DNA from: a virus
Lineage: Duplodnaviria; Heunggongvirae; Uroviricota; Caudoviricetes
DNA: 64,000 nucleotides
Virus record (IMG/VR): IMGVR_UViG_3300021387_000285
Strand: one strand, 5' to 3'
In this document: positions 8,237 to 24,433 of the stretch, one piece after another
Layout of the letters: every line of letters starts with the position of its first letter
Numbering within the stretch: the first letter of the stretch is position 1
Made by a program: the position numbers and the translations under genes
The notes under the pieces: generated by a model
What the model saw: only the letters and a program-made list of their open reading frames with translations
Database searches by the model: none
Told to the model about the DNA's origin: nothing

Positions 8237-8277
8237 GGGATAGGCACTTAGTACCTATCCCAATTTTTTATTTTTTC
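8237..8277. terminator. Hairpin terminator, possibly bidirectional.
   Basis: Stem GGGATAGG/CCTATCCC with T-runs on both sides. It overlaps the stop of the 8248-8577 gene. Confidence 0.55.
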
Positions 8278-9140: not shown

Positions 9141-9562
9141 TATGCCACCCTCTCTACAATAAGATTTGCATTCTGGACATCCACATCTGTAGTTCCTACA
9201 TTTTCTACACTAACTTGCGCGCAGCATCCTTGCGCCACGTCAATAAATAAAGAACGAGAAACATTATTAAACTCTTCTACTACGCCAGGAGTAGAAATCA
9301 TCATAGCAGAACCAATAGGCTCACCATTTATAGCTAATGCTAGCATAATTGGTTCTGTAGCTGTTGCATCTGCTGGTAATGCCACATTGGCCCCAAACAT
9401 AACACGAAATCTTGCTCGGCATTGATTAGTTAAACCTCTTAATCCAACTAACCCACTGCCTTCTCTGTGTAAAATAGATGGAGTTCCATTAACAGCAGTA
9501 TTAGTAAAAACCACTACATTATTAGTACTGACTGTCTATAAAGCATTTGCTGTTACTTCCAT
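9140..9562 (-). CDS. Protein with a BclA C-terminal-domain-like (TNF/C1q-like) fold signature; 1 in-frame TAG.
   Basis: C-terminus ..NANLIVERVA is like the BclA C-terminal domain ..IIIEKVA and the composition is beta-rich. GAAAGGAG RBS upstream. Confidence 0.4.
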
Positions 9563-9576
9563 ATTACTCTCCTTTC

Positions 9577-10383
9577 TTAACTAGCAAGATTGTAGTTATA
9601 AAATCCATTATACCCATAGTATCCAGTATAAGGATTTGGAACTTGGTATGCGGGAATTGGGTTTGGCTGTAAATGAGTTAATAAGTAAGCATTCTGCTCG
9701 CTCTGCGAAATCTAAGTCTTTAAAGCAGAGTTCTCACTTTGCAATGCACTTAATCTATCTTGTACTAAGAAGTCAAGAATCTGACGAGTATTATTATTGC
9801 AATTCTGCATAATATCTCGTGCGCCATCTACAACTGCCTGACGGTCAGCGCAAGCTTCTGTTGCAATATTATAATTTAATGTTGCAAAACTACTTGCAAT
9901 ATTCTGGTCAGTCTGGCAATTTGCTAACTGCTGTGCAGCTTGCATTGAGCTCAACTGTTGAGTAAGGCCAAATGTATTCTGCATTCCTGCTATAGTATTT
10001 GCATTTATTGCTTGGTTAATACTATTAGTATTCTGAAGATTTTGCATACCCATATTACAAATATCAGATTGAATAGCACTTGTACCAGCATTGATAGCTG
10101 CATTAGTAGAAGCAAAACCATTTAAAATACCAGTATTTATGTTATAGAAACCATTAGTAACATTGTCGTTGATAGAATCTAAACCATAAATAGCAGTAGC
10201 AGTTGAAGCAGCATTGCCATTGCCGCCTCCCCAACCAAATCCATTACCGCCCCATCCGCCGAGACAGAATAAGAACAGTAATACAATCCACCATCCACTT
10301 CCACCACCGAAGAAGCCATCACCACTATTACCAGTAGCAGCAGCAATATCGGCTAAAGAATAACCACTTTCACTATTGAACAT
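9577..10383 (-). CDS. Gly/Asn/Gln-rich membrane protein with 1 in-frame TAG.
   Basis: N-terminal Gly-rich region plus TM segment WWIVLLFLFCLGGW. AAAGGAGG RBS upstream. Confidence 0.45.
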
Positions 10384-10411
10384 ATAAAATGTCCTCCTTT
10401 AATATATATTT

Positions 10412-10648
10412 TTACAGCCCTAAAGTTTTCTTAAAGGCAGTAAATTCAGTATCAAAGTCTAGACCTTTCTATGCACATAAATTACGAGCGATTTTTTCAA
10501 TATCCGCACCATTGTGTGATTGGGCTAGACTCAGGAGGTTCTAACCCATTGGTGATGATTGCGCTTGTTGTTCTAAAAAAGACATTATCATTTGAGTTGG
10601 ATTTTGTTTACTCTTCACCATTGATAACATTTGTTGTACTGGATTCAT
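10412..10648 (-). CDS. Hypothetical small protein with 2 in-frame TAG.
   Basis: ATG at 10648 is preceded by TAAGGAGG. TAATG overlap with the upstream gene. Confidence 0.4.
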
Positions 10649-11001
10649 TAAAATACCTCCTTATAGTTTACAGATGGCTACTCTTTTGGTGTTAATAAAT
10701 CATTAATATGATTTAATGCCTACTCAAACTCACTCCTAGTAATATAATCACCTACTGTTGGTTCTGCGGGAATTGGCTTTAACTCATACATATTTAAAGA
10801 GGCAGTGCCATCCATATTGATTTGTTTAGTATAAATTCTTTTATTTGCCAAATCTGGAAAATAAAAAATTGAACCATCAAAATCAATAGACAATGCACGT
10901 ACTTCTTCTAATGATGACACAGGATGCCCTTTAAGTAAATATGAAGTGGCCGGCGTTCTTTGCGCGGTAGCATTTGACTACTATTGATAATAATTATACA
11001 T
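10648..11001 (-). CDS. Hypothetical protein with several in-frame TAG.
   Basis: ATG at 11001 is preceded by AAGAGGA. It extends the track ORF 10720-10920(-) in both directions. Confidence 0.4.
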
Positions 11002-11162
11002 GCGTTTTTCCTCTTTTCTGGAAAATTTTTTACAATTTTTTTCCATTTTTATGTAAGTTTTTTGGTAAAATTATTATTGCTTTTTGTCCTTATGCTACCT
11101 GCGTTTTACCAATTTTTAGTAAAATTATTGTAAAAAAATTGGGAATGCCTATTTTCGGTTTG

Positions 11163-11192
11163 TTGATTTTTTACAAAAAATATGATATTATA
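11163..11192 (+). promoter_or_regulatory. Sigma-A-type promoter within a ~60-bp conserved block.
   Basis: CGGTTTGTTGATTTTTTACAAAAAATATGATATTATATATACAGAAAAAT. One of four long paralogous promoter blocks. Confidence 0.6.
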
Positions 11193-11230
11193 TATACAGA
11201 AAAATATATAGAAAGGAGAACCCTTTTACA

Positions 11231-11983
11231 ATGCCAGTACATGATGCATTAGGTACACGAATGAAAGAGTACGAATCTAGGAATCAGTATTATCTTCAAA
11301 AACGTACTCCAGTAGCAATACGTATTGATGGTCGCGCATTTCATTCATTTACTAAAGAACTTAACAGACCATTTGATAATGTTTTTCAAACATCTATGAT
11401 TCAAACAATGGAAACACTTTGCGGGGAAGTTCAGAATTGTATTTTTGGGTATACGCAATCTGATGAAATTACTTTAATTTTAAAAGATTATAATCAATTA
11501 AATACTTCGGCATGGTTTGATTATAGGACAGATAAATTATGTAGTATTTCTGCTAGTTTAGCAACATATTATTTTAATAAATATTTTAAAGAAAATGCAG
11601 AAAAAGTTATTTGGGCCAATCCAAATAATAGTTATTCATCAACTCTTGCTAAATGCTTGAATAAACCTGCTATTTTTGATGCCCGTTGTTTTAATATTCC
11701 AAAAGAAGAAGTAGTTAATCTTATCTATTGGAGACAGTTAGATGCGGTCCGCAATTCAATTCTCTCATGCGGTCAAGCAGAATTTTCTCACAAAGAGCTT
11801 ATGAATAAATCTTGTAAAGAGATTAAAACAATGCTTGAAGATATCGGCAAATCTTGGGATAAAATTCCTATCCACAAGCAGCGTGGAACCGCATGTACAA
11901 GAGTTGAAGGAACTTGGATTACTGATTATGCGATGCCTATTCTTCTTAAAGAAGATAGAGCTTATTTGGAAGAATTGATTTAA
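11231..11983 (+). CDS. Thg1-like protein (tRNA-His guanylyltransferase family, 3'-5' polymerase). TAG-free.
   Basis: IRIDGRAFHSF, GYTQSDEITLIL and YWRQLDAV match Thg1 motifs VRLDGRNFHRF, AYGQSDEYSFVF and SWRQADCH. Confidence 0.8.
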   Translation: MPVHDALGTRMKEYESRNQYYLQKRTPVAIRIDGRAFHSFTKELNRPFDNVFQTSMIQTMETLCGEVQNCIFGYTQSDEITLILKDYNQLNTSAWFDYRTDKLCSISASLATYYFNKYFKENAEKVIWANPNNSYSSTLAKCLNKPAIFDARCFNIPKEEVVNLIYWRQLDAVRNSILSCGQAEFSHKELMNKSCKEIKTMLEDIGKSWDKIPIHKQRGTACTRVEGTWITDYAMPILLKEDRAYLEELI

Positions 11984-12438
11984 TGGAAAAATACAAAGAT
12001 TTAGTTCATTACGATCGTGACAAAGAAGAATATTATATTGATTATCCTATAGGAAATCAAACATTTCACATGGGTTTTCAAAAGTGTGAAGTTGATTCTT
12101 TTATTGATAATGGAACAGTATATTTTAATGTTTGGATAAATCTATATAATAAACGTAAAGACATGTGGCGTAATGAAGATTTACTTTTATCTACTGGATT
12201 GAACCCAATTAAAACAGTTCTTGTTGCGCGAGAATGTTTTAAAGCAATTGAAGCAGAAATTATTGAAGATATGGAATATAATAATAAAGATGTAATTATT
12301 TATTGCCATTGGGTAAATAATCGTAGACGAGATGCTTATTATAAAGTTCTCTCACGAATGGGATATAGATATGGAAGAATCCCATTGCATCCTTATAAGG
12401 TAATTATGAAGAGGTATAAAAATAATGAAAATAAATGA
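11983..12438 (+). CDS. Hypothetical protein.
   Basis: ORF from the track with an ATG/TAA overlap to the upstream gene. Confidence 0.4.
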   Translation: MEKYKDLVHYDRDKEEYYIDYPIGNQTFHMGFQKCEVDSFIDNGTVYFNVWINLYNKRKDMWRNEDLLLSTGLNPIKTVLVARECFKAIEAEIIEDMEYNNKDVIIYCHWVNNRRRDAYYKVLSRMGYRYGRIPLHPYKVIMKRYKNNENK

Positions 12439-12775
12439 TCTTTTAATTGAAGATATAGCATGGACTTTAAGAAATTTTACTGCTAAAATCATAGATTGGG
12501 AAGAAACATCTTTTTGGGAACGTGACTATAATGAAGACCCCTATAAACAAGCTGCTCATGCTATGCTAATTACTACTAAAATTGGTTATGGTGATTGTTA
12601 TCCTATTGATACTTTTATTGAAAATGTAAAAACAGGTAATTTTATTGACTATGATGGAAGTGGTTTTTGGGTTGACTCTGAAGGTAATAAAATTAATCCA
12701 ATTATATGTGATGCAAACTGGTTAAAACAAAATAAACCAGAAAATGCTAGATTTATAATGTGGTATAACAAATGA
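12425..12775 (+). CDS. Hypothetical protein.
   Basis: ORF from the track. Confidence 0.4.
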   Translation: MKINDLLIEDIAWTLRNFTAKIIDWEETSFWERDYNEDPYKQAAHAMLITTKIGYGDCYPIDTFIENVKTGNFIDYDGSGFWVDSEGNKINPIICDANWLKQNKPENARFIMWYNK

Positions 12776-13005
12776 TTTTATGTAATAAAAAATGTATCCC
12801 TTGCTGTGATTATTGTATATATGTTATTCATGATGAATGGGACGAATATGTGGATTATTGGGTAAATCCTAAACATGTAGTAGGTGGTCCCATTTGGTGT
12901 AAATTACATCAAGATAAAAAACATCAAGAAATTGCTAAAAGTTGTGGTAGTTGTGATGATTTTCATTGTTGTAATGCAAAAGAAGAAAGTTGGTATATTG
13001 TATGA
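12772..13005 (+). CDS. Cys-rich putative zinc-binding small protein.
   Basis: Multiple CxxC pairs. Confidence 0.4.
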   Translation: MILCNKKCIPCCDYCIYVIHDEWDEYVDYWVNPKHVVGGPIWCKLHQDKKHQEIAKSCGSCDDFHCCNAKEESWYIV

Positions 13006-13196
13006 CAGAGTTAGATGGTTTTATAAGTAGAATAAATCTTAATGGAAAAACTTATGGTTTAAAATGTGAAGTCGTTGAAGCGCGACCTATTACTTGTAAA
13101 AAGTGTGGGGCTTCTTTTTAGCTTCATTATGGAGAAGGACGATGTGAACATTGTGGTACATATTATACTACACACTTTTATATTGAGGAAAAATAA
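13002..13196 (+). CDS. Zinc-ribbon small protein with 1 in-frame TAG.
   Basis: CKKCG...CEHCG. ATGA and TAATG overlaps with its neighbours. Confidence 0.4.
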
Positions 13197-13399
13197 TGGA
13201 TGTTCCAAATTTAGATAATTTGATTAAAGCTATTAGTTGTGATACTTGGGCTTCTAATAAATGCAAAGAATGTCCTTATAATTATCAGCATTGGGATGAC
13301 AGTGGAGATTATGGTTTTTGGTGTTGTGATGAAGAAAAAAAATGGAATGATGCTTTATTTTATTTAAAACTTTATCAACATTTGATTAATTGGAAATAA
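13196..13399 (+). CDS. Hypothetical small protein.
   Basis: ORF from the track. Confidence 0.4.
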   Translation: MDVPNLDNLIKAISCDTWASNKCKECPYNYQHWDDSGDYGFWCCDEEKKWNDALFYLKLYQHLINWK

Positions 13400-13436
13400 T
13401 AATGAATAAAAAATATAGTTGGAGTAGTAATATAAT

Positions 13437-14243
13437 ATGAGTAAATTTTATGGAAATTATTCAGGTCGCTTTGGTGACCACTTTAAAGAATGCAAAGAAT
13501 ATTTTAAAGAATCAGAAATTGTAATGCTTGCTCTTACTGGAAGCCAAAACTATGGGCTTGATACAAAAGATAGCGATATAGATACTAAGCTTACTGTTCT
13601 TCCTTGTAAAGAAGATATTTTCTTTAATAAGCCAGCAGTATCAACAACTCATATTAGGGATAATGAAGAGCATATTGACTTTAAAGATATCCGTTTAATG
13701 CTGCCTACATTGCTTAAGCAGAATGTTAATTATCTTGAGCAACTTTTCTCTACTCAGTATCTTATTAATGAAGATTATAGTCATGAGATAGAATCTCTTC
13801 TTGATATCAGAGAAGATATTGCAAGATTCTATCCACATAAGTGTATTATGACAATGTATGGAATTGCAATGGGAAAAAAGAATAGAATCTTTAGAGAACT
13901 TCCAGAAAAGAAAGATATCTTTACATATGGATATAATCCAAAAGAAGCAATGCAGCTTTTCCGTATTGAAGAGTTTTTGCACCGATATATAAATGAAGAA
14001 CCATTTGAAGATTGTCTAAAATCTCAGCAAAGGGAACATTTATTGCTGGTTAAAAGTGGCGTTTATGATTCTCATGAAATGGTAGATATGGTAAATGCGG
14101 CAATCGCGCACGTTGAAGAAATGAAAGAAGATTATTTTGCGACTCATGAAGAAACATATAAACCTGGGGTACAGATTGTAATTTATGATGTTCAAAAAAG
14201 AATTATGGAGAAATATTTAAAAAATGTCTTTAATAATAGATGA
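13437..14243 (+). CDS. Minimal nucleotidyltransferase (Pol-beta superfamily) domain protein.
   Basis: ALTGSQNYGLDTKDSDIDT matches the GSxxxGxxxxxSDxD NTase signature. Confidence 0.6.
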   Translation: MSKFYGNYSGRFGDHFKECKEYFKESEIVMLALTGSQNYGLDTKDSDIDTKLTVLPCKEDIFFNKPAVSTTHIRDNEEHIDFKDIRLMLPTLLKQNVNYLEQLFSTQYLINEDYSHEIESLLDIREDIARFYPHKCIMTMYGIAMGKKNRIFRELPEKKDIFTYGYNPKEAMQLFRIEEFLHRYINEEPFEDCLKSQQREHLLLVKSGVYDSHEMVDMVNAAIAHVEEMKEDYFATHEETYKPGVQIVIYDVQKRIMEKYLKNVFNNR

Positions 14244-14523
14244 ATATTTTCAGAATAAAATAGATAATAAAATAGATTTTACAGAAGAAGATTTTTGGGA
14301 TTTCATAGATGAATATTCTATTGAAACTGAATATGGAGATTTACGCAGATGGTATCGTTCCGCCACTACAATCTGTGAATTTAATGGAAAATATTATGCT
14401 TGTGAATGGGATCAAGGATTAACAGAAAGACAAGAGAATCAATGGTATGGAGATCAACCATATGAAGTAATTCCTAAAGATATCGTCATAACTAAAACAG
14501 AAAGGATTTGGGAACGTGCATGA
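14224..14523 (+). CDS. Hypothetical protein.
   Basis: ORF from the track. Confidence 0.4.
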   Translation: MSLIIDEYFQNKIDNKIDFTEEDFWDFIDEYSIETEYGDLRRWYRSATTICEFNGKYYACEWDQGLTERQENQWYGDQPYEVIPKDIVITKTERIWERA

Positions 14524-14894
14524 AAATTATTATAGCAGGTGGGAGAGATTTTAATAATCGTGCCATAATGTTTCCAATTCTTTTAAAGTATATCAATAGC
14601 TCAAAAGATATTATTATAAGCGGAGATGCGCAAGGCGCTGACACACTTGGAGCAGAATGGGCAGAAACGTTTGGAATAGAAGTTTGGCATTTTCCAGCTA
14701 AATGGGAGAAATATGGTAAGTCAGCAGGATTTATTCGCAATACTGAAATGGCTGACTGCGCGGATGCTCTTATTGCCTTTTGGGATGGGAAAAGCAAAGG
14801 CACAGCCCATATGATTAAAACAATGAAATCCAAATGGAAAAAGTATTGGGTCTTTAATTATTCAGGAGAACTGATAGAAGAAGGGAGCTTATAA
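14520..14894 (+). CDS. SLOG/DUF2493-like Rossmann-fold protein.
   Basis: KIIIAGGRDF...GDAQGADTLGAEWA...WDGKSKGT. ATGA overlap with the upstream gene. Confidence 0.45.
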   Translation: MKIIIAGGRDFNNRAIMFPILLKYINSSKDIIISGDAQGADTLGAEWAETFGIEVWHFPAKWEKYGKSAGFIRNTEMADCADALIAFWDGKSKGTAHMIKTMKSKWKKYWVFNYSGELIEEGSL

Positions 14895-14899
14895 AAAAA

Positions 14900-15712
14900 A
14901 TGAAGTTCTTTATTACAGGGGACTGTCATGGTGAATTTGCACGCTTTAATGCCCCTCCAAAAGATGAAGAGTTAGGAGTAATTATTCTTGGCGATGCAGG
15001 ATTTAATTTTTATCTTAATAAAACAGATGAAAGAAAAAAGGAAGAACTTTGTACCAACCATCCTAATATGACTATATATTGCGTGCGCGGCAACCATGAA
15101 GCAAGACCTCAAGATATTGATACTATGACTACAGTATTTGATGCAACAGTTCATGGAGTAGTTTACATGGAGCCACAGTATCCTAATATCCATTATTTTC
15201 TTGATTATGGATTTTATGATATTGGTGGATATAATTGTCTTGTAATAGGCGGCGCATATTCTGTTGATAAAAAATGGCGACTGATAAGAAATGGAATGAC
15301 AGAAGAAACTAACAATCCTAAAAAAACAGGATGGTTTGCTAATGAACAACTTACTAAAGAAGAAATGGAAGATTGTTATGAACTAGTAAAAAACTTTAAC
15401 AAACCTGTAGATTTTGTCTTTACTCATACTTGTCCAACAAAATTTCAACCTACAGATATGTTCCTTCATGGAATAGACCAATCTCAAGTAGACAACTCTA
15501 TGGAAGAGTTTCTAGAAGATGTAAGTTATCAAATGGGTTGGAATATTTGGTGTTTTGGGCATTATCATGCCGACCGCATTGAACGCCCGCACGTTGAACA
15601 ATATTATAGAGATATAGAAGAGCTAGATGAAGTATATAACAGATGGAAAAATTATGATAAAACACATGAGCTTCCTTGGCATCTTGTGAAAGGACCAATG
15701 TTTGATGCATGA
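14900..15712 (+). CDS. Calcineurin-like metallophosphoesterase.
   Basis: GDCHG, GDAG and GNHE motifs. Confidence 0.7.
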   Translation: MKFFITGDCHGEFARFNAPPKDEELGVIILGDAGFNFYLNKTDERKKEELCTNHPNMTIYCVRGNHEARPQDIDTMTTVFDATVHGVVYMEPQYPNIHYFLDYGFYDIGGYNCLVIGGAYSVDKKWRLIRNGMTEETNNPKKTGWFANEQLTKEEMEDCYELVKNFNKPVDFVFTHTCPTKFQPTDMFLHGIDQSQVDNSMEEFLEDVSYQMGWNIWCFGHYHADRIERPHVEQYYRDIEELDEVYNRWKNYDKTHELPWHLVKGPMFDA

Positions 15713-15891
15713 TATTATTTCTTAAAATTATTGCACCAATTTGTTTAATTATTGCTACTATTCTCTTTTGGAAATTTGAACATAAAATCTTACATTCAAA
15801 AGAACAACATTTTACGATATTTCTTTTTATTGTTCTTGAATGCTGTATCATATTACTTTGGATGTGTTATTTAGCCTGGTTATTTCCATAA
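15709..15891 (+). CDS. Small membrane protein.
   Basis: Two hydrophobic segments. Confidence 0.35.
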   Translation: MILFLKIIAPICLIIATILFWKFEHKILHSKEQHFTIFLFIVLECCIILLWMCYLAWLFP

Positions 15892-15910
15892 TCAGGCTAT
15901 TTTCGGTTTA

Positions 15911-15939
15911 TTGATTTTTTTATAAAAATATAGTATAAT
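15911..15939 (+). promoter_or_regulatory. Sigma-A-type promoter within a ~60-bp conserved block.
   Basis: CGGTTTATTGATTTTTTTATAAAAATATAGTATAATATATATAGAAAAAT. Confidence 0.6.
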
Positions 15940-15969
15940 ATATATAGAAAAATAAAGGAGAAGCTAACT

Positions 15970-16350
15970 ATGAATATTGAAAAATTACGGTCGCTTTCTC
16001 GTAAAAAATACCAACGAGCTATGAATCAACTTGTACGCAAAATTAACAAATCCCTTAAAGATGATTGGCTTTGGGATGGAAGATTTACACTCAAACAGCA
16101 ATCTGCCTATTTTTGGTCCTATGAAGATCATAGTGGTGGGCATTTTCTTGTTTGGTTAACTTTTGTTGATAATAAAACTAGCGCAGAAGAATATATGGAT
16201 TTTGATAATTATGGCACAGAATATAATATAATGCGTTGGATAAATACTTGCATTACTGAATACTTTGATGTTTGGAAAGAAAATCCTAATCCATATAAAC
16301 AGGCAGAAATGGAGGGGAGGTATCCTGTGCCTCCTGAATCTATACTATAA
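15970..16350 (+). CDS. Hypothetical protein.
   Basis: ORF from the track preceded by an AAAGGAG RBS. Confidence 0.45.
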   Translation: MNIEKLRSLSRKKYQRAMNQLVRKINKSLKDDWLWDGRFTLKQQSAYFWSYEDHSGGHFLVWLTFVDNKTSAEEYMDFDNYGTEYNIMRWINTCITEYFDVWKENPNPYKQAEMEGRYPVPPESIL

Positions 16351-16964
16351 TGATTTTTTCAATTCTTATTCCAATTACTATTATTGGAGCAGGTCTGATT
16401 ATAACCTTAATAGACCAAAAAGTTGCATATTTAAATAGCATAAGAGAAAGATATAATTTAGAACTTAAAACTATTTGGTGCCCTTATCAATCTTTTGCTG
16501 ATGCTACCGAGGCTAAAGCTTATCAACAAAAAGTTATAGAAATGCCACAACTTACTTTTGATAGATGGTTAACTTTTTATAATAATAAACCAGAATGTTG
16601 GGTTATTCAAAAAGATCAATGGAAAAGTTTTGCTGATATTCCCTATTATGTTAAAATAAATGAACATGAAGATAGAAAAGGCAGAATAAAAAGAACTTTC
16701 TCTTTTGTCCCTACCTATTGGATAAGTCCAGAAGAAAAACAGAAATATAGAGAGTGGGTAGAGACTCAATATGAGTATGGCAAAGCGCAAATTTATGAAA
16801 ATGCGCGAAATGCCAAGCTCAAAGAACTCGCGGGATATATTGAAGAAGATATTAACGAACGTCGCAAAGTATTTGAAAAGGAGCTTGAAAAAGCAAAATC
16901 AGATATGACTTTGCAATTAAGTGATGGGACAAAAGTAGTAATACCGCAACCTACTAAAAAATAG
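16350..16964 (+). CDS. Hypothetical protein with an N-terminal TM helix.
   Basis: ORF from the track. Confidence 0.45.
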   Translation: MIFSILIPITIIGAGLIITLIDQKVAYLNSIRERYNLELKTIWCPYQSFADATEAKAYQQKVIEMPQLTFDRWLTFYNNKPECWVIQKDQWKSFADIPYYVKINEHEDRKGRIKRTFSFVPTYWISPEEKQKYREWVETQYEYGKAQIYENARNAKLKELAGYIEEDINERRKVFEKELEKAKSDMTLQLSDGTKVVIPQPTKK

Positions 16965-16974
16965 GAGTAAAATT

Positions 16975-17313
16975 ATGTATTCAATTTATGTTGATGATGA
17001 GAGAACCCCAAAGGGAAAGTTTGACATTGTTTGCCGCACAACTAATGATGCAGTAAAAGCAGTAAGACGTAAATATAAAGAGGGCGTGCGTAACTTTTAT
17101 TTAGACTTAGACCATGATGCTGGATTAGATAGTCTTACTAATGAGCATGGTGGAGATTTTATAAATGTTCTAAAACAGATAGATGCCTATGTTAATATGG
17201 GCAGAATGCGCGACCTTGATATCACAGTAAATTATCATACTGGCAATCCAGTAGGAAGAGAGAATATGCATAACTTTGTTATTAATTCTGGGTATATGCA
17301 CGAATTGGTCTAA
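16975..17313 (+). CDS. Hypothetical protein.
   Basis: ORF from the track. Confidence 0.4.
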   Translation: MYSIYVDDERTPKGKFDIVCRTTNDAVKAVRRKYKEGVRNFYLDLDHDAGLDSLTNEHGGDFINVLKQIDAYVNMGRMRDLDITVNYHTGNPVGRENMHNFVINSGYMHELV

Positions 17314-17344
17314 TAGGTTGGTAAAATTAAATCGTATATATCTA

Positions 17345-17373
17345 TTGAAAAATAAAAAAAATTATGCTATAAT
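17345..17373 (+). promoter_or_regulatory. Sigma-A-type promoter.
   Basis: TTGAAA-N17-TGcTATAAT followed by ATATATAGAAAAT. Confidence 0.55.
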
Positions 17374-17704
17374 ATATATAGAAAATTTGAGAAAGAAATA
17401 TTCAAATGGAATTGTATGATATTGATTTTATTGGTTTAATTTAGATATATGGTTCTTCAAAAGAAGAAGCATTGATTAAGTTTAAAAGATGGATTGCAAC
17501 TGCTCCAGGCATTTTATAGCTTGACGATTATGATAATGAAGATGACTAATTTAGAATTTTTAAAATATCTTAGAGAAAATAAAATAGTAGATTTTGAAGA
17601 TAATTTTAATTCTAATGAAGAAAGTAATGTTCTTTCTGTATGGGATTGGGATGGATGGCATGAAATGTTAATTTGGTTTGATAGTGAAGGGAACATTATA
17701 GAAA

Positions 17705-18277
17705 ATGATTGAAGGATTGTATGAGCCTTTCAGAACTGAATGGTCGGCAGAAGGAACCGTATGGTTATATAGTGATCCTCATTTTGATGAAGATGAAGAT
17801 CTGAGAATTGCTTTCCCTCATCGTCCTACTGCAGAAGAGCAGGTTAAAATGATCAACAGTAATGTTGGCAAAAAAGATCATCTTATTCTTCTTGGAGATA
17901 TTGGAAGTATTGAATGGGCACGTAAGCTAAGAGGACATAAGATTCTTATAGCAGGAAACCATGATATTGGTTTAAGCGCATATAAGGATATTTTTGAATA
18001 TGTATATGGTGGCCCACTTATGATTTCTGAAAAGATAATTTTATCGCATGAACCTTTAGGAATTGATTGGGCCTTCAACATTCATGGGCATACGCACATG
18101 CAGAAAGAAGATAAAAAAGGTTGTTTATGTGTATGTTCTGATGTTATAGGATATACTCCAATTAACTTTAATCAATTTATTAAGTCTGGTAGACTTACAG
18201 AAATAACTCCATTGCATCGTATAACCATTGATAAAGCCACATTAAGAAAACAAAAGAGAGGAGCATGGCGCAAATGA
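17705..18277 (+). CDS. Calcineurin-like metallophosphoesterase.
   Basis: GD..., GNHD and GHTH motifs. Confidence 0.65.
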   Translation: MIEGLYEPFRTEWSAEGTVWLYSDPHFDEDEDLRIAFPHRPTAEEQVKMINSNVGKKDHLILLGDIGSIEWARKLRGHKILIAGNHDIGLSAYKDIFEYVYGGPLMISEKIILSHEPLGIDWAFNIHGHTHMQKEDKKGCLCVCSDVIGYTPINFNQFIKSGRLTEITPLHRITIDKATLRKQKRGAWRK

Positions 18278-18522
18278 GAACTGCATATGCACTTTTTGAA
18301 GCAGAATCAAATGAAATTATTTGTGTTTCTGAATTAAGAACTAATGTTGAAGAATATTTATGCGATATATTTATGGATGATTTTTATGTAGAAGCTATCT
18401 ATAATTATTACCATAATGATACGTTAACTCCTGCTGAAATCGCTAAACAGGCATGGGATTATTGTATAAAATATTATGGTGATGAATCACTTATTTATAT
18501 TGTAGAAACAGAACTAATTTAA
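18265..18522 (+). CDS. Hypothetical protein.
   Basis: ORF from the track. Confidence 0.4.
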   Translation: MAQMRTAYALFEAESNEIICVSELRTNVEEYLCDIFMDDFYVEAIYNYYHNDTLTPAEIAKQAWDYCIKYYGDESLIYIVETELI

Positions 18523-18535
18523 GGAGTTTTTAGTT

Positions 18536-18748
18536 ATGATATTTTATAAAGTAAAACTTTGTAATGTTGAACATGAGAATTATTTTGTAGATTATGAAAA
18601 TGCTGCAAATTTTTTACTTAATTCGTATTTTGATGATACAAATGATGTGACTGATGAAGATGGAGCTATGGATATAAATAATGAAGTTGCTGATACTGGA
18701 GCAATTGAAGGCTATGGCTGCATTGAAGAATGCTGGTTTGATGATTAA
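18536..18748 (+). CDS. Hypothetical acidic small protein.
   Basis: ORF from the track. Confidence 0.35.
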   Translation: MIFYKVKLCNVEHENYFVDYENAANFLLNSYFDDTNDVTDEDGAMDINNEVADTGAIEGYGCIEECWFDD

Positions 18749-18757
18749 ATCGGCTTA

Positions 18758-18786
18758 TTGATTTTTTATAAAAAATATAATATAAT
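18758..18786 (+). promoter_or_regulatory. Sigma-A-type promoter within a ~60-bp conserved block.
   Basis: CGGCTTATTGATTTTTTATAAAAAATATAATATAATATATATAGAAAAAT. Confidence 0.6.
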
Positions 18787-18822
18787 ATATATAGAAAAAT
18801 AAAGAAAGAGAGTGTTTTTATT

Positions 18823-19023
18823 ATGACTGTATATGAAAAGATTGACCGAGCATTACGTCAACATGAGCAGCATAAATATTATGAACGCTCTCTTGATTCT
18901 ATTGCTGATTATATTGATTGGGCTTGGAAATGGCGTAAAATAACACCAAAAGAAAAAGATGAAGTATGTAACAGAGTTTGCGCTTTATATGAAGAAAAAT
19001 TAGCACTTATTAGAAAGAGTTGA
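18823..19023 (+). CDS. Hypothetical small protein.
   Basis: ORF from the track. Confidence 0.4.
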   Translation: MTVYEKIDRALRQHEQHKYYERSLDSIADYIDWAWKWRKITPKEKDEVCNRVCALYEEKLALIRKS

Positions 19024-19586
19024 TGTATATGAAAAAGTTTATATTACCAAAGCTTCATATTGATATTGAACGATGGAAATATTGTATGGCATTGGATATT
19101 TATGTCTCTAATCTTGGAAGATTTAAAGATACTCAAGGGCATCTTTTAACTGTATGCAAAAAAGATGGATACCTTTATTGTAAAGGAAAACTTGCTCATC
19201 GTTTAGTTCTTCAAACATGGAAACCAGTCCCTAATTATGCTAATCTTACAGTTGACCATAAAAATCATAATACTTGGGATAATCGTTTAAAAAATCTTGA
19301 ATGGGTAACGCTTGAAGAAAATAGAAAACGCGATGAAATAGATAAAAAAAATAATGCACCAATTAGTACAACTATCAACTCTACTATGAACGTAGATACT
19401 ATGGTTATGTTAAATACTACTCTTATGCCTATTGGTAATGCTAAAGAGATTCTTAAAAATGATAAGACAATTTCTGGAAATGCTAATATTCAACGAGCAT
19501 TTGAAAAAGCAATGAATACACCAAACAAACCAATTAAGTTTGGTGGATATTCTATTACTTGTATTAAAAAGGATAATGATAAATGA
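19020..19586 (+). CDS. HNH homing endonuclease.
   Basis: ..HRLV..VDHKNHNTWDNRLKNLEWVTLEENRKR matches the HNH_3/NUMOD-type motif. Confidence 0.75.
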   Translation: MMYMKKFILPKLHIDIERWKYCMALDIYVSNLGRFKDTQGHLLTVCKKDGYLYCKGKLAHRLVLQTWKPVPNYANLTVDHKNHNTWDNRLKNLEWVTLEENRKRDEIDKKNNAPISTTINSTMNVDTMVMLNTTLMPIGNAKEILKNDKTISGNANIQRAFEKAMNTPNKPIKFGGYSITCIKKDNDK

Positions 19587-19957
19587 ATAATCCAACTGAA
19601 GAAGGTATTTATACAACAATATTTAAAGATGGAACTATTATCCATTATAATTATTGGATGATGTTTGATGATGGCAAGGGAAAATGGTATTGGAATAGCA
19701 CAGTTAGTGGTGGAGTAATACATTGGTTTAAGCCAGAAGAAAACTATGAAATGCATACTTATTATAGATTGCCAGATTGGGAATTGCGCGAACTAATTGA
19801 GCAAGCAAAACGAGCAGAAGCATATGAGACGTATGCGGATGATATAGATAAAATATTGCAGGCTTTTCTTATAGAGCAAGGTTTTAGCACATATGAAGAT
19901 ATGGCTAATTATGAAATGAATGCGGGATATTATAAAGGCTATGAAATAAAGGAGTGA
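19583..19957 (+). CDS. Hypothetical protein.
   Basis: ORF from the track. Confidence 0.4.
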   Translation: MNNPTEEGIYTTIFKDGTIIHYNYWMMFDDGKGKWYWNSTVSGGVIHWFKPEENYEMHTYYRLPDWELRELIEQAKRAEAYETYADDIDKILQAFLIEQGFSTYEDMANYEMNAGYYKGYEIKE

Positions 19958-19963
19958 TATAAA

Positions 19964-21199
19964 ATGCTTAATAAAAATCAAGAACGAGAACTGGCATATG
20001 TTGTAGTTATAGATGAAATACGAGAGATTCCTGGCTATGATAGAGTAGAGCATGCGCGAACCGGTGGTTGGTGGTGTATTGTTCCTAAAGGACAGTTTCA
20101 TGTAGGAGATGCAGCAATCTATTTTGAAATTGATAGTAAAGTTCCTTCAACCAACCCAGCATTCGCTTTCCTTGAAAAACGTAATTATAAAATAAAAACT
20201 CAGAAGATGTGTAAGGTACTCAGCCAGGGACTTATTATGCACGCAGAAGATTTTGGATGGAAAGCGTATCAAGCTGGAGAAACTGGTTATAATGAACCAG
20301 CTTGTATTATGGATGATAATAATGCTTGTCATTATGTAGATACAGAATCCCGTTTCCTTACTAAAATTCTCGGTGTAACTTATGCGGATGAAGAAGATAA
20401 TAATCGTAAAGCTAATTCTGTAGACAAATATAAAAAGATGGCACAGCGACATCCTGCAATTTTTCGCAAACCTTTTGTGCGTTGGCTTATGAAGCGCACT
20501 TGGGGTAAGAAACTTATGTTCTTGTTTTTTGGAAAGAAAAAAGATAAGAAGAATAGCTGGCCAGAATGGGTTACTAAAACTGATGAAGAGCGCATTCAAA
20601 ACATGCCTTGGATTCTTGAAGATAATGGAGAATGGGTCGTCACTGAAAAGATAGATGGCAGCTCTACTACCTTTACGATGAAACGTGGAAAACATAATAA
20701 ATATGAGTTCTATGTATGCTCCCGTAATGTATGTTTTGACAGTGTAGATAAACGCTGCTATTATGATACTAACATTTATTGGGAAATGGCTGAAAAATAT
20801 GATATGTATAATATGTTGCTTGCTTTTCTGCTTGGACGGCCAGATGTTGAGTGGGTAACTATACAAGGAGAAACTTTCGGCGCAGGTGTGCAAAAACGTG
20901 ATTACTCTCTTGAAGGCCATGATTTCAGAGCATTTAATCTTATTACTTCTGATAGAGGTCGTTGGGGAACTCTTGAAATGAAAGAACTCCTTGAAAAGCA
21001 TTATAATATTCCCTGCGTGCCTGTTGTTCTTCCTAACTTTAAATTTGAAGGACTTGATGTAGATAAACTCCTTACTTTTGCAGAAGGAAACTCTATGATT
21101 GATGATAAGCCTCGTGAAGGTTTTGTTTTCCGTTCTAAAGATGGACAGCGTTCTTTTAAAGCAGTAAGTAATGCTTTTCTACTTAAATATCATATGTAA
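19964..21199 (+). CDS. ATP-dependent RNA ligase-like nucleotidyltransferase (Rnl family) with an N-terminal extra domain.
   Basis: KIDGSS (motif I, KxDGxx), EGFVFR (motif IV) and ..FLLKY (motif V). Confidence 0.55.
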   Translation: MLNKNQERELAYVVVIDEIREIPGYDRVEHARTGGWWCIVPKGQFHVGDAAIYFEIDSKVPSTNPAFAFLEKRNYKIKTQKMCKVLSQGLIMHAEDFGWKAYQAGETGYNEPACIMDDNNACHYVDTESRFLTKILGVTYADEEDNNRKANSVDKYKKMAQRHPAIFRKPFVRWLMKRTWGKKLMFLFFGKKKDKKNSWPEWVTKTDEERIQNMPWILEDNGEWVVTEKIDGSSTTFTMKRGKHNKYEFYVCSRNVCFDSVDKRCYYDTNIYWEMAEKYDMYNMLLAFLLGRPDVEWVTIQGETFGAGVQKRDYSLEGHDFRAFNLITSDRGRWGTLEMKELLEKHYNIPCVPVVLPNFKFEGLDVDKLLTFAEGNSMIDDKPREGFVFRSKDGQRSFKAVSNAFLLKYHM

Positions 21200-21212
21200 A
21201 GGAATAATATAA

Positions 21213-22103
21213 ATGAAAAATAAAATTATTACTACAAGTATTGTTTGTACTATTGTAATTATAGCTCTTTTAATTGTCGGATTGAGTTGTACGACTTCTG
21301 TTCCTGCTGGATTTACAGGAGTCCCTGTGACTTTTGGTAAAGTTGCTGATTATACTCTAGATAGTGGTTTCCATATAAAGGGACCTTTTACTTCTGTTAT
21401 TAAAATGGATAATCGTATTCAAAAACATACTATCCAAATGAATGCCTTTTCAAAAGATATTCAAGAGACTTCAGTAACATATACTATTAACTATCAAATT
21501 AGTAAAAATGATGCAATGACTATTTATCGTACTATTGGTAAAAATTATTTTGATACAGTAATTGCGCCTAATGTCAGTGAAGCAGTTAAAACAGCAACTG
21601 CGCATTATACAGCAGAAGGTCTTATTAATAGTCGTGATAAACTTGCTAGCGATATTGAAGAAATATTAGTTCAACTTTTAGAGAAATATAATATTGTAAT
21701 TGTTGGCACTTCTATTGAAGACCTTGACTTTACTGATGCTTTTACAAATGCGGTTGAAGCAAAGCAGGTAGCACAGCAAGATAAATTGCGCGCTGAAACA
21801 ATTCAGGCTCAGCAAACTATGGAAGAACAAGCAAAAGCAGAGCGTGCGATTATTGTTGCCGAAGCTGAAGCAAAACAGGCGATTATTGCGGCTAATGCAG
21901 ACCTTGAAGTTGTACAGATTCAAGCAGAAGCGAGCCTTTATGCAGGTGAGCGTGAGGCGCAAATGAACCAGCGTATTGCAGAAGCGCTAACTCCAGACCT
22001 TATTAAATATTATTGGATTAAACAGTGGAATGGAGAACTGCCATCAACTATGCTTAATGATAGCACAGGAATTATGTTAACTCTTGGAGAAAATATAGAA
22101 TAA
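21213..22103 (+). CDS. SPFH/band-7 (prohibitin-HflC-like) membrane protein.
   Basis: N-terminal TM helix, SPFH core, then a coiled-coil Ala/Glu/Gln-rich tail. Confidence 0.7.
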   Translation: MKNKIITTSIVCTIVIIALLIVGLSCTTSVPAGFTGVPVTFGKVADYTLDSGFHIKGPFTSVIKMDNRIQKHTIQMNAFSKDIQETSVTYTINYQISKNDAMTIYRTIGKNYFDTVIAPNVSEAVKTATAHYTAEGLINSRDKLASDIEEILVQLLEKYNIVIVGTSIEDLDFTDAFTNAVEAKQVAQQDKLRAETIQAQQTMEEQAKAERAIIVAEAEAKQAIIAANADLEVVQIQAEASLYAGEREAQMNQRIAEALTPDLIKYYWIKQWNGELPSTMLNDSTGIMLTLGENIE

Positions 22104-22104
22104 T

Positions 22105-22141
22105 AAAAAAAAAGACACAATAATTGTGTCTTTTTTTTTAT
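22105..22141 (+). terminator. Rho-independent terminator.
   Basis: AGACACAA..TTGTGTCT stem flanked by A and T runs. Confidence 0.7.
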
Positions 22142-22169
22142 TGACTTTTATATAAGGATATGGTATAAT
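22141..22169 (+). promoter_or_regulatory. Sigma-A-type promoter, TTGACT-N17-TGgTATAAT.
   Basis: Sits directly upstream of the GT2 gene. Confidence 0.6.
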
Positions 22170-22194
22170 AAAAATAAAAAAGGGGTGAAAATAA

Positions 22195-23235
22195 TTGAAT
22201 ATAAATCCATAGATAGATGTTATTATGCCATGTTATTATCAAAACAATGTAATAAAATTAGGAATTGAAAAACTTATTGCACAAACATATAAAGACAATT
22301 TAACTTTAATTATGATAAATGATTGTTCCCCTAATACCCAATGTGAATATCAAGATTTAATCAATACTTACAAAGAACAAATACATATTGAATATATTAA
22401 AACTTCTAATAATATAGGTCCTGGCTGCGTAAGACAATTAGGAATTGATAAATCTCAACATTCTTTTTTATTATTTCAAGATGACGATGATGAATTATTT
22501 GATACCAATAGTATTGAATTATTAGTATCTCAATTAAATAATAAAGATATAACAACAATTGCTTCAGTGTCAGGAGATATACAACTAATTTCATAGTATT
22601 ATTATAGTAAGTTATGGAAAAGTAATGGACTACAAGTTCAAGGAACTTTATTTAATAAAAAAATATTAAAAGATTTAAATATCCATTTTGAACCAGATTT
22701 ATCATATAAAGAAGAAGATACAGCATTTTCTGAATTATTTTGTTATAAAACTAAAAACTATGAACATCTTATAATAAATAAGCCAGTATATATTAGACGA
22801 TATTTTGATACTCATACACATATCTCTTCTATTAATTCAATTAAAGAAAACTTTATTTCAATGTTAATATTAAATGGTTATAGAATAAATTATTTTTTAC
22901 ACTATGCAACAAAAAATGATAGTATTAATGAATCATTATTTATTATAATTCCTACTTTATTAAACAACTTATTAACATATATTATATCTAATAATTTAAC
23001 AATTACTAAAAAAGAATATCAAAAAATTAATTTTACATTAGAACAATATATACAATTATATACAAAATATAAAAATAATAATTTTAATATAGTAGAATAT
23101 ATAAATAAAAACCCATTTCTTAATAACTTTTTTAATGAACAAAGTATATATGGAACAATTAATATACAAAACATTGAAGAACCTTTAGAAATATTAAAAA
23201 ACAAATTATTAATTTTTCAATCAAAAATTGAATAA
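22195..23235 (+). CDS. Family-2 (GT-A) glycosyltransferase with 2 in-frame TAG and extremely AT-rich composition.
   Basis: TTG start with an AAAAAGGGGTG RBS. DVIMPCYYQNN (GT2 N-terminal motif), INDCSPNT and a DDDDE DxD motif. Joins track ORFs 22225-22596 and 22861-23235. Confidence 0.65.
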
Positions 23236-23247
23236 AAGAACGGTTTA

Positions 23248-23276
23248 TTGATTTTTTTATAAAATTATGATATAAT
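23248..23276 (+). promoter_or_regulatory. Sigma-A-type promoter within a ~60-bp conserved block.
   Basis: CGGTTTATTGATTTTTTTATAAAATTATGATATAATATATATAGAAAAAT. Confidence 0.6.
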
Positions 23277-23288
23277 ATATATAGAAAA

Positions 23289-23504
23289 ATGAAAAGGATG
23301 GAATCAAAAATGTATTATGGTTATCGTATGACAGAAGATGGTTGGACTAGAATGAAAACCTTTGATACTATCCAAGAGTACAAAGAATATGTGGAGAAGC
23401 GAAAAGTCGTTTGGGGGCTTTGTTCTAGCGAGCCTGTTGATTTGCGAGGAGAAGCTGCTTCAGAAAAATACATGGCTCGTATGTATAAAACAGATGCAAA
23501 ATGA
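23289..23504 (+). CDS. Hypothetical small protein.
   Basis: ORF from the track. Confidence 0.4.
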   Translation: MKRMESKMYYGYRMTEDGWTRMKTFDTIQEYKEYVEKRKVVWGLCSSEPVDLRGEAASEKYMARMYKTDAK

Positions 23505-23665
23505 TTCAAATACAAGTTATTCCAGTACAAAATCAAGGGCACGCTAATGAAATATTACGTGCCTATTCTCAAAATTATCCTAAACGAAAAATTATTGGAG
23601 TATCAATGATTCCTGTTGATTTTCCAGGAGGCTGGTTTATGACAGTTACTTACGAGATTATTTAA
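23501..23665 (+). CDS. Hypothetical 54-aa protein.
   Basis: ATGA overlap with the upstream gene. It ends in TAA. Confidence 0.3.
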   Translation: MIQIQVIPVQNQGHANEILRAYSQNYPKRKIIGVSMIPVDFPGGWFMTVTYEII

Positions 23666-23679
23666 GGAAGTGATAAAAT

Positions 23680-24432
23680 ATGAGTGTTTACTGTGCTAGT
23701 GATTGGCATGGATGTTATTGGGTTTGGGAAAAAGTAAAAGAAATTCTTAAACCCGATGATAAATTATATTTTTTAGGAGACGCCGCAGATAGAGGACCAG
23801 ATGGATGGAAACTTATCAAAGAACTCCTTACAGACCCTAGAGTTATCTACATTAAGGGCAACCATGAAGATTTAATGATTGAAGCTATTGGGAAGTTTAA
23901 TCCAGAAGAAGAAGATAGTTTATGGAATGCGGACACCACCCTCTGGCATTATAATGGCGGCGACCCTACTTATGATGCTTTTCTTTTGGATGAAGATAAT
24001 TTTGGAAAAGCAAAGATTTTAAAACAAATAAAAGATTTGCCTTTTTGCGCCAATTATATCAATAAAAATAATCAACAAGTATTTCTTTGTCATGCAGGAT
24101 GTGATGGTGTAGACATTGATACTTTAGATGAATATCATGCAATATGGGATAGGGAACATTGGAGATTTCCTGATGAATGGTCTGGAGAAGATAATCAAAT
24201 AATAGTTCATGGACATACTCCTATTGACCTTATGATTGAGGAACAGGAAAATATAGCAAGATGGCATAAAGATAAATTTCAAGTAACAATACCTAAATGG
24301 ACTCCTGGTACATCTTATTGGTATGCGCAGGGGCACAAAGTCTGTATTGATATTGGTACGGTTTGGGAAAATGTAGCAATTCTTTTGAATCTTGATACTT
24401 TTGAAGATATTATATTGATGAAGAGGTATTAA
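23680..24432 (+). CDS. Ser/Thr protein phosphatase (lambda-PPase-like metallophosphoesterase).
   Basis: DWHG, GDAADRG and GNHE motifs. Confidence 0.7.
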   Translation: MSVYCASDWHGCYWVWEKVKEILKPDDKLYFLGDAADRGPDGWKLIKELLTDPRVIYIKGNHEDLMIEAIGKFNPEEEDSLWNADTTLWHYNGGDPTYDAFLLDEDNFGKAKILKQIKDLPFCANYINKNNQQVFLCHAGCDGVDIDTLDEYHAIWDREHWRFPDEWSGEDNQIIVHGHTPIDLMIEEQENIARWHKDKFQVTIPKWTPGTSYWYAQGHKVCIDIGTVWENVAILLNLDTFEDIILMKRY

Positions 24433-24433
24433 T

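Follow-up and report, generated by a model that had tools for sequence, protein, structure and literature searches.

The uncultured virus record IMGVR_UViG_3300021387_000285 is studied here through a stretch of 64,000 nt, hereafter the window, whose coordinates are used throughout. In-frame TAG codons occur in 42 of its 84 genes (50%), the other half being translatable under the standard code of the host. The genes poor in TAG include an island of plus-strand genes for predicted RNA and tRNA repair, the genes of gyrase and DNA ligase and those of the replisome core, whereas structural, lytic, accessory and nucleotide-metabolism genes carry TAG, often at high density. The window is probably part of a large, AT-rich, uncultured tailed phage, whose host would be Gram-positive, judging from the endolysin domains and from the relatives of its DNA polymerase III (Pol III).

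Genetic code and distribution of TAG in the window

The gene model treats TAG as a sense codon and TAA and TGA as stops, and gene identities come from Pfam, PHROGs and NCBIfam. The 84 genes cover 95% of the window and comprise 19,895 codons, including 136 in-frame TAGs. When TAG is read as sense, the coverage by open reading frames (ORFs) of at least 100 amino acids (aa) rises from 0.70 to 0.91, whereas the same treatment of TGA, used as a control, only raises it from 0.70 to 0.76. Pfam domains run across TAGs in PhoH, NrdD, the endolysin, RecJ and Gmk. Moreover, in alignments with related sequences, the TAG positions of the window lie opposite glutamine in 42% of 441 aligned cells, against a background of 2.8% and, in the reverse direction, the TAGs of the relatives lie opposite a glutamine of the window in 44%. 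Comparison of NrdD with a distant standard-code NrdD (PDB 8p23) places glutamine at three of its seven TAG sites, that of a conserved GNQ included. Globally, these alignments point to genetic code 15 (TAG = glutamine) being used by part of the genes of the window. As TAG is then a sense codon for glutamine, the genes that contain it cannot be completed under the standard code, and gene calling with that code would break up half of the gene set. Each of the 82 complete genes terminates with TAA or TGA, which only checks consistency, since the model imposed these stops.

The TAG-poor island, which begins after a divergent junction, and its identified genes are as follows.

11047..11230, no strand: intergenic region from which the minus-strand TAG-containing genes (6626-11046) and the plus-strand island diverge
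11231..26676, plus strand: TAG-poor island, genes g16-g45, 4 TAGs in 4,694 codons
11231..11983, plus strand: Thg1-like tRNA-His guanylyltransferase family protein (PF04446, 1e-32), 0 TAG
13437..14243, plus strand: RlaP / Pol-beta-type nucleotidyltransferase (NTase), RNA repair pathway, 0 TAG
14520-14894, plus strand: YspA-type SLOG protein, 0 TAG
14900-15712, plus strand: calcineurin-like metallophosphoesterase, 0 TAG
16975..17313, plus strand: cREC_REC (cyclic-phosphate processing receiver domain) protein, 0 TAG
19023..19586, plus strand: HNH_3/NUMOD4 endonuclease, 0 TAG
19964..21199, plus strand: DRB0094-like RNA ligase with an N-terminal PHA02142 OB domain and a C-terminal adenylyltransferase domain, 0 TAG
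21213..22103, plus strand: SPFH/Band 7 protein, 0 TAG
23680-24432, plus strand: metallophosphoesterase, 0 TAG
24645-25139, plus strand: AAA_33 P-loop kinase with weak Pnkp/PSTK similarity, 0 TAG

The architecture of the RNA ligase is PF21189 + PF09414 and its best NCBIfam match is TIGR02306, at 112.8 bits and thus below the cut-off of 151. The small ORFs of the island (60-150 aa) are equally TAG-free, and its GC content and GC at third codon positions (GC3) resemble those of the rest of the genome. An ORF of 336 aa at 22225-23235, flanked by two early-type promoters, has a very low GC content (0.20) and one TAG; Pfam and PHROG searches with it gave no match.

Further to the right lie gyrase, DNA ligase, the replisome genes and a permease.

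31220-33151, plus strand: GyrB-like subunit, 0 TAG
33138-35492, plus strand: GyrA-like subunit, 1 TAG at 34545-34547 (residue 470)
36978..38909, plus strand: NAD-dependent DNA ligase (LigA), 0 TAG
42384-43379, plus strand: Sak4/AAA_24 protein, 0 TAG
44150-45679, plus strand: DnaB, 0 TAG
45912-47009, plus strand: primase, 0 TAG
47326-49095, plus strand: RecJ, 3 TAGs, within the replisome stretch 42384..54835
49469-50713, plus strand: RecD-like helicase, 0 TAG
50948-54835, plus strand: Pol III alpha (1,295 aa), uninterrupted, 0 TAG
60441-61733: xanthine/uracil permease (PF00860, 2e-51), 0 TAG, with a higher GC content (0.37)

The TAG-containing genes are found on both sides of the island and among these TAG-free genes.

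2114..11046, no strand: TAG-containing left arm, with dUTPase (1 TAG), RuvC-like (6), radical SAM enzyme (rSAM, 10), Cys-repeat protein (7) and others (1-4)
26933..28228, plus strand: PIN-PhoH protein, 14 TAGs (32 per 1000 codons)
28275..29666, plus strand: endolysin (PG_binding_1 + ELLD + SH3_3), 5 TAGs
35786..36859, minus strand: fibre-like protein, 9 TAGs, with motif AATTGGACAAATTA upstream at 36908-36921
39555..40706, plus strand: transmembrane + coiled-coil + GIY-YIG protein, 12 TAGs
55243..59734, plus strand: nucleotide-metabolism run, with Gmk (4 TAGs), NrdD (7), NrdG (2), g78 (1) and g79 (5)

Structural and lysis genes are thus recoded in the window, the fibre-like genes carrying 1, 9 and 6 TAGs (6 in a protein of 709 aa) in addition to the 5 TAGs of the endolysin. 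Another long protein that tolerates TAG is NrdD (749 aa). Single TAG-dense genes (endolysin, PhoH, GIY-YIG and the minus-strand fibre gene) are set gene by gene among TAG-free ones and g64, with 2 TAGs, is interspersed in the replisome stretch.

An earlier note on this DNA had described the block 11231-22103 as nearly devoid of in-frame TAG, and it is: its 22 confident ORFs (3,419 codons) contain 2 TAGs for 23.4 expected (binomial p=3e-9), one at 13119-13121 in a weak and doubtful ORF of 64 aa, the other at 16962-16964, two codons 5' of a TAA. The right boundary proposed for this block was too short, the TAG-poor stretch reaching 26676. The TAG counts given in the earlier note are also found here for PhoH, GIY-YIG, rSAM, the minus-strand fibre-like gene, NrdD, RuvC-like and endolysin, as are the absence of TAG from Pol III alpha (1,295 codons), DnaB, primase, LigA, GyrB, RecD-like and Sak4 and the single TAG of GyrA. 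Only the Cys-repeat protein departs from it, with 7 TAGs from the first ATG, or 9 from stop to stop, instead of 6.

The unevenness of TAG is real, and neither gene length nor composition explains it. Indeed, a uniform density, or an effect of length or composition, which the earlier note had named as what would undo its claim, disagrees with the Poisson dispersion of TAG across genes (X2=270, 83 degrees of freedom, p=1e-21) and with comparisons of in-frame to out-of-frame TAG, which give 2/121 in the block versus 134/798 elsewhere (Fisher p=5e-6) and 1/220 in the replisome core versus 131/530 (p=5e-17). GC and GC3 overlap between TAG-free and TAG-rich genes. The longest genes belong to the TAG-free class and, the absence of TAG from Pol III has a probability of 1.4e-4 if the global rate is applied and of 6e-8 with that of TAG-containing genes. 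Furthermore, genes with and without TAG form clusters along the genome (31 runs versus 43 expected, z=-2.6).

Within the genes, the positions of TAG are uniform (Kolmogorov-Smirnov (KS) p=0.15), which does not support a clustering at 5' ends that would act as an efficient gate. Three TAGs are found within 4 codons of a gene end (g27, RNase H and g72, 2-4 codons before the stop) versus 3.7 expected, so that the idea of TAGs as former stop codons near gene ends is unsupported as well. CAG represents 14% of CAA + CAG in TAG-rich genes versus 27% (p=6e-4), AAG/AAA and GAG/GAA being unchanged. A specific derivation of TAG from CAG was rejected, the TAG sites of the window aligning with CAA in 34% and with CAG in 8% in relatives. 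The total glutamine content reaches 47.6 per 1000 codons in TAG-rich genes versus 30.3, and this excess implies that TAG was added and not merely swapped. Unlike the rest of the genome, three genes located at 41419-43379 and 9577-10383 encode glutamine by CAG rather than CAA (12:1, 11:1 and 13:8); their higher GC content hints at another origin or expression class.

Conservation of the pattern among related phages

A megablast search of 22 kb of the window against GenBank phages gave no match, nor did an exact search of IMG/VR with 40-mers, which would thus not contain the source contig. Pol III alpha is about 40% identical in aa to those of Enterococcus and SPbeta-type phages, and the RNA ligase is at most 29% identical to any from GenBank phages. 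Related loci (labelled L below) were collected from IMG/VR, 16 around Pol III and 80 around the RNA ligase, on contigs of up to 240 kb. At least 80 IMG/VR contigs belong to this family, whose related contigs measure 130-240 kb. The family is large, without close relative among GenBank phages and, judging from these searches, apparently undescribed. According to a coverage test, 39 of the loci are clearly TAG-recoded and the others hardly, and orthologues were counted in the recoded set.

RNA ligase: 34 orthologues, 0 TAGs in 13,939 codons
P-loop kinase: 27 orthologues, 0 TAGs in 3,906 codons
g43: 29 orthologues, 0 TAGs in 5,040 codons
GyrB: 15 orthologues, 0 TAGs in 8,661 codons
GyrA: 7 orthologues, 1 TAG in 4,939 codons
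PhoH: 12 orthologues, 50 TAGs in 4,895 codons
RecJ: 4 orthologues, 37 TAGs in 1,922 codons
NrdD: 4 orthologues, 24 TAGs in 2,699 codons
NrdG: 4 orthologues, 12 TAGs in 601 codons

Taken together, 6 TAGs are counted among the 32,313 codons of the orthologues of the island genes (11231-26676) versus 241 among the 43,161 codons of the other orthologues (Fisher p=6e-50, a value that is overstated because the orthologues are phylogenetically related, which weakens the case made below). The 34 RNA ligases, which are 55-72% identical to the protein of the window, contain 371 CAA/CAG glutamine codons, and no TAG is found in the 32,659 ligase codons of all 80 related loci. Across many recoded relatives, the RNA-repair island, GyrB/GyrA and LigA remain TAG-free. 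The classification of RecJ, NrdDG, Gmk and PhoH as suppression-dependent, made in the earlier note, agrees with their TAG content in the window and, for PhoH, RecJ and NrdDG, with their recoding in the relatives too. Across the relatives, a TAG-free core is conserved for the island, gyrase and LigA, but not for the replisome, in which the closest relatives have TAGs.

In 15 recoded relatives the gene order is that of the window: TAG-dense minus-strand structural genes precede the divergent junction, after which come a long TAG-free run with the ligase, kinase, NTase, phosphoesterases and Thg1, then isolated TAG-dense genes in the early/replication region and finally TAG-free genes for RNase H, gyrase and ligase. 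The minus-strand structural genes of the relatives have up to 58 TAGs and proteins of 650-950 aa carry 17-22 TAGs. At the position equivalent to that of the endolysin, three unrelated architectures are found: the ELLD protein of the window with its 5 TAGs and, in relatives, a GH25 + CHAP + GW protein with 8 TAGs and a glucosaminidase + amidase_2 protein with 17 TAGs. Drift can hardly account for such a convergent recoding of unrelated endolysins.

The replisome behaves differently from the island. In the closest relatives (L001, L002 and L008), whose Pol III is 85-87% identical to that of the window, TAGs are found in Pol III (3-6, with 6 in each of L001 and L008), DnaB (2-9), Sak4 (3) and primase (1-3). 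Over 16 shared orthologues, L008 has 57 TAGs versus 22 in the window. The contig IMGVR_UViG_3300028805_000039 combines both states: its island is TAG-free over 16 kb (L017), yet its Pol III and DnaB have 6 and 9 TAGs (L008). Among the more distant relatives, all matched orthologues of L003 lack TAG, and in L011 and L014 TAG is confined to a few genes that do not belong to the replication set. The family thus forms a gradient of recoding with the window in the middle, and the strictly protected set is the RNA-repair island with gyrase and ligase, not the polymerase. The TAGs of the closest relatives imply that a TAG-free replisome is not a general requirement of the lineage; that of the window may correspond to a less advanced stage of the spread of TAG. 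The single TAG of GyrA is also lineage-specific, the relatives having T, Q, N or H at this position. It is located between the N-terminal breakage-reunion domain (Pfam 25-454) and the C-terminal beta-propeller repeats, so that its reading as a stop under the standard code would yield a GyrA devoid of its C-terminal domain.

Expression signals and explanations of the mosaic

Plus-strand intergenic regions contain near-identical predicted promoters of the consensus TTGAYTTTTTTAnAAAAAnTATGRTATAATATATATAGAAAA (sigma-A-type -35, A/T spacer of 17 nt and extended -10), often followed by ATATATAGAAAA. These promoters delimit many short transcription units. The expression TTGAYT-N17-TATAAT has 20 matches for 2.1 expected, 17 of them intergenic on the plus strand. 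The promoters (about 29 nt each, matched by consensus) and the terminators cited below are as follows.

2068, 4630, 11163, 15911, 17345, 18758, 22141, 23248 and 26170, plus strand: sigma-A-type promoters
30040, 31157, 36921, 38906, 39149, 40987, 43411, 49107 and 50884, plus strand: sigma-A-type promoters
11163-11191, plus strand: sigma-A-like promoter, TTGATT-17-TATTAT with TG
22107-22137: bidirectional terminator candidate at the end of the block 11231-22103
28229-28251: intrinsic terminator candidate after PhoH and directly upstream of the endolysin gene
39512-39534: intrinsic terminator candidate directly upstream of the GIY-YIG gene

About seven of these promoters belong to the island (11163, 15911, 17345, 18758, 22141, 23248 and 26170; six matched by the expression, plus 11163), which they cut into short units together with terminators at 15872, 22107 and 26051. 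Others precede RNase H, GyrB, LigA, g61, g64, g70 and Pol III. The gene next downstream of a promoter has 0-1 TAG, except g1 (3) and g64 (2), and the consensus search revealed no such promoter directly upstream of PhoH, endolysin, GIY-YIG, rSAM, Gmk/NrdD and the fibre genes. These predicted signals fit an early transcription of TAG-free genes by the host RNA polymerase. They also fit the view that at least two of the embedded late genes are insulated twice, by a terminator and by TAG. An exact motif, AATTGGACRAATTA, is present on the minus strand at 2044-2057 and 36908-36921, upstream of the two fibre-like genes of that strand (3-1973 and 35786-36859). When up to 2 mismatches are allowed, 11 matches are found versus 4 expected, and the motif is a candidate late-promoter element.

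Suppressor tRNAs are found in relatives. Arrays of tRNA genes flank the island there and, in L025 and L054, amber suppressors, tRNA(CUA), which the Rfam tRNA model confirms, are encoded downstream of the RNA ligase gene, at a distance of 1.4-3 kb and next to ORFs with 0-6 TAGs. Both encode their own CCA. That of L025 displays glutamine-like acceptor features (unpaired 1:72 and G73, as judged by eye only). An origin of the suppressor from a phage tRNA-Gln(UUG) is not clear from overall identity, which is 0.65 at best. In L039 (3079-3165), ARAGORN calls a tRNA of 87 nt with a CUA anticodon and a long variable arm. The Rfam tRNA model does not recognise this candidate, and its match to tRNA-Sec is weak (34 bits, under the cut-off). 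It is perhaps an amber suppressor of type II, in which case TAG would not be glutamine in the phage of L039.

The explanation that we consider probable is a partial recoding to code 15 in which genes with TAG need a phage suppressor tRNA for their translation, the early genes in standard code being expressed first. The standard-code set would comprise the 15-kb RNA/tRNA-repair island with its many host-type promoters, gyrase, DNA ligase and, here, the replisome core; the TAG-dependent set would comprise fibre-like genes, endolysin, GIY-YIG, PhoH, RecJ, NrdDG, Gmk, rSAM and RuvC. Host RNA polymerase and ribosomes would make the products of early genes, a phage suppressor tRNA encoded outside the window would then build up, and only afterwards could the late, lytic and accessory genes that contain TAG be completed. 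As a part of this explanation, the RNA-repair island and gyrase would be under a strong and conserved selection against TAG, and the replisome, which TAGs have already entered in sister genomes, under a weaker one. A temporal gating of expression is plausible.

Several observations weigh against this explanation. No tRNA was detected by ARAGORN and Rfam within the 64-kb window, nor in the 4 kb beyond its right end (L097), and neither a release factor (RF2) nor an aminoacyl-tRNA synthetase (GlnRS) was found in the window or in these 4 kb. The TAGs in the replisome of the nearest relatives imply that these phages replicate with suppression on, or that suppression starts very early. The TAG-containing g1 and g64 lie directly behind an early-type promoter and, since PhoH, Gmk and NrdDG are co-oriented downstream of such promoters, TAG content does not neatly follow the timing of transcription. 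Moreover, all the promoter and terminator calls are matches to a consensus only.

A more specific proposal, possible but doubtful, is that the island is a bootstrap kit of the code switch, whose enzymes would mature or protect the phage tRNAs including the amber suppressor, the gene of which neighbours that of the ligase in relatives. The kit would gather end-healing, sealing and tailing activities, namely the Thg1-like 3'-5' polymerase, the NTase, cyclic-phosphate/phosphoester processing, the kinase and the DRB0094-like ligase. If the island matures the suppressor, it must itself be written in the code of the host, and its activity would set the time when TAG-containing genes become translatable.

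The mosaic could also reflect an unregulated historical spread: once a suppressor tRNA had been acquired, TAG would have drifted in as a nearly neutral synonym for glutamine, at a pace governed by purifying selection, time and recombination, and the mosaic would be an unfinished code change instead of a timing device. This scenario explains the gradient of relatives (none in L003, few in L011/L014, half of the genes in the window, the replisome too in L008/L001/L002) and the labile replisome, and agrees with the lack of 5' bias (KS p=0.15) and the lineage-specific TAG of GyrA. However, drift would hardly leave 34 diverged RNA ligases, GyrB, the kinase and g43 without any TAG when neighbours at the same loci carry 8-22, nor make unrelated endolysins all TAG-rich, nor produce the glutamine excess of TAG-rich genes (47.6 vs 30.3 per 1000 codons). 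Furthermore, island genes with 33-60% identity are TAG-free while NrdD, at 77%, has 7 TAGs, so that protein constraint does not predict TAG. Drift alone is therefore a possible but rather unlikely explanation. If suppression is incomplete, TAG may instead be avoided in very long or high-fidelity proteins regardless of timing, as the absence of TAG from Pol III (1,295 aa), GyrB, LigA and DnaB would suggest. This is quite unlikely, because the ORFs of 60-150 aa of the island are TAG-free as well and long proteins tolerate many TAGs: 7 in NrdD (749 aa), 6 in the 709-aa fibre-like protein, 17-22 in proteins of 650-950 aa of the relatives and 6 in the Pol III of L001 and L008.

The island and the other TAG-free genes could also have been recently imported from standard-code genomes, with no time to gain TAG. 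The permease 60441-61733, with its higher GC content and 0 TAG, and the use of CAG instead of CAA by g62 and g63 (12:1 and 11:1), which hints at a different origin, go in this direction. The island is, however, present, syntenic and TAG-free in dozens of diverged relatives and hence of long standing in the lineage, it resembles the remaining genome in GC and GC3, and the orthologues of the permease in L001 and L008 already have 2-4 TAGs; a recent import is therefore very unlikely. Finally, TAG could be a true stop, the TAG-dense genes being pseudogenes or wrongly fused ORFs, and the three TAGs located 2-4 codons before a stop (g27, RNase H and g72) could be real host-code stops. Full-length domain matches across TAGs, the alignment of TAG with Q, a gain in coverage of 21 points for TAG versus 6 for the TGA control and the suppressor tRNAs of relatives make such an artefact scarcely credible.

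Comparison with known systems and further observations

The genes of the island recall the Pnk/Rnl1 system of T4, an early phage module that heals tRNAs cleaved by the host. In both cases an RNA ligase is paired with kinase and phosphoesterase genes, the function being a prediction in the window. Unlike in T4, the ligase is DRB0094-like and not Rnl1, kinase and phosphatase are separate, and Thg1-like, RlaP, SLOG and cREC proteins are added.

A temporal model of recoded phages has already been published (Borges et al., 10.1101/2021.08.26.457843), in which the replication genes are in standard code while recoding affects those for lysis and structure and, heavily, a homing endonuclease. The recoded clades of that study include crAss-like, Lak, Agate, Jade, Garnet, Topaz and others, with in-frame stops in 26-71% of genes, a range that includes the 50% of the window. 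Like the window, these gut phages read TAG as glutamine in a host that presumably uses the standard code, are partially recoded with relatives that differ in extent, and have recoded structural and lysis genes, replication genes often in standard code and a heavily recoded endonuclease in the early region. The genes for the code change of these gut phages are in standard code; no such component was found in the window. However, their Firmicutes-infecting TAG clades (Garnet, Amethyst and Topaz) measure 22-34 kb versus 130-240 kb for the family of the window, and the most strictly TAG-free genes of the window are those of the RNA-repair island, not the replisome. The crAss-like phages analysed with Mgcod (10.1101/2022.06.29.495998) also alternate standard-code stretches with stretches using a reassigned stop but, in contrast to this block-wise dual coding, the blocks of the window are not clean, TAG-dense genes being singly inserted.

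The gut virome phage phAss-1 (Phassvirus, PMC10607447), of about 136 kb, uses TAG as glutamine in 28% of its ORFs and has many tRNAs, including three tRNA-Sup(CUA) genes. It has no detectable nucleotide similarity with the window and does not appear among the best matches of Pol III or of the RNA ligase, and its description (PMC10607447) reports no conserved TAG-free RNA-repair island. In recoding phages with theta ribozymes, the DRB0094-family RNA ligase is enriched 140-fold and tRNA nucleotidyltransferase 250-fold (Kienbeck et al. 2024, PMC10879173). The window similarly has a DRB0094-like ligase and an NTase (compare PMC10879173) but, unlike these phages, neither it nor three relatives with suppressor tRNAs yielded ribozymes of the hepatitis delta virus-like or theta type with Rfam (gathering score or E<=1), in which the theta family may not be included.

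What appears new is the conserved standard-code core formed by the RNA/tRNA-repair island, gyrase and ligase, the loss of TAG-freeness of the replisome in sister genomes together with the convergent recoding of unrelated endolysins, and the comparison with 39 TAG-recoded relatives from IMG/VR. A large phage family, with a probable Gram-positive host, is thus added to the phages that partially use TAG as glutamine. It offers a natural series of recoding stages, from almost none, through late genes only and accessory and nucleotide-metabolism genes (window), to the replisome (closest relatives). This series allows one to ask which genes resist recoding longest (the RNA/tRNA-repair island and gyrase, not the polymerase) and which ones recoding reaches first and affects most (PhoH, structural genes and endolysins of unrelated types), and bears on the question of recoding as a lysis-timing device versus a drifting code change.

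Various other elements were observed in these phages. In L004, L013, L002, L007, L016, L009 and L012, the genes of Pol III alpha, RecJ or RecD are interrupted by inserts of about 1.2 kb. Homologues of the GIY-YIG domain of the window gene 39555-40706 are encoded in several of these, which suggests mobile introns or inteins. Structured RNAs lie in or beside the tRNA arrays of relatives: ROOL RNA (328 bits), drum RNA (73 bits) and group I introns (L039 1882-2465; L031 1918-2029; L019 1617-1834; L039 4922-5231). The permease 60441-61733 is likely an auxiliary gene for nucleobase uptake; no record was returned when its exact protein was looked up. In the Cys-repeat protein (7223-8125, minus strand), the C-terminal 200 residues consist nearly entirely of Cys-x-Gly/Ser/Thr repeats (CTGxC...), and the protein weakly matches a PHROG of unknown function. 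Finally, the metagenome contig L097 (AUXO017340356.1, 4,551 bp) is 100% identical to the window over 63526-64000 and reaches 4 kb beyond it, where it carries minus-strand TAG-containing genes for proteins of 792 aa (1 TAG), 203 aa (3) and 235 aa (3).

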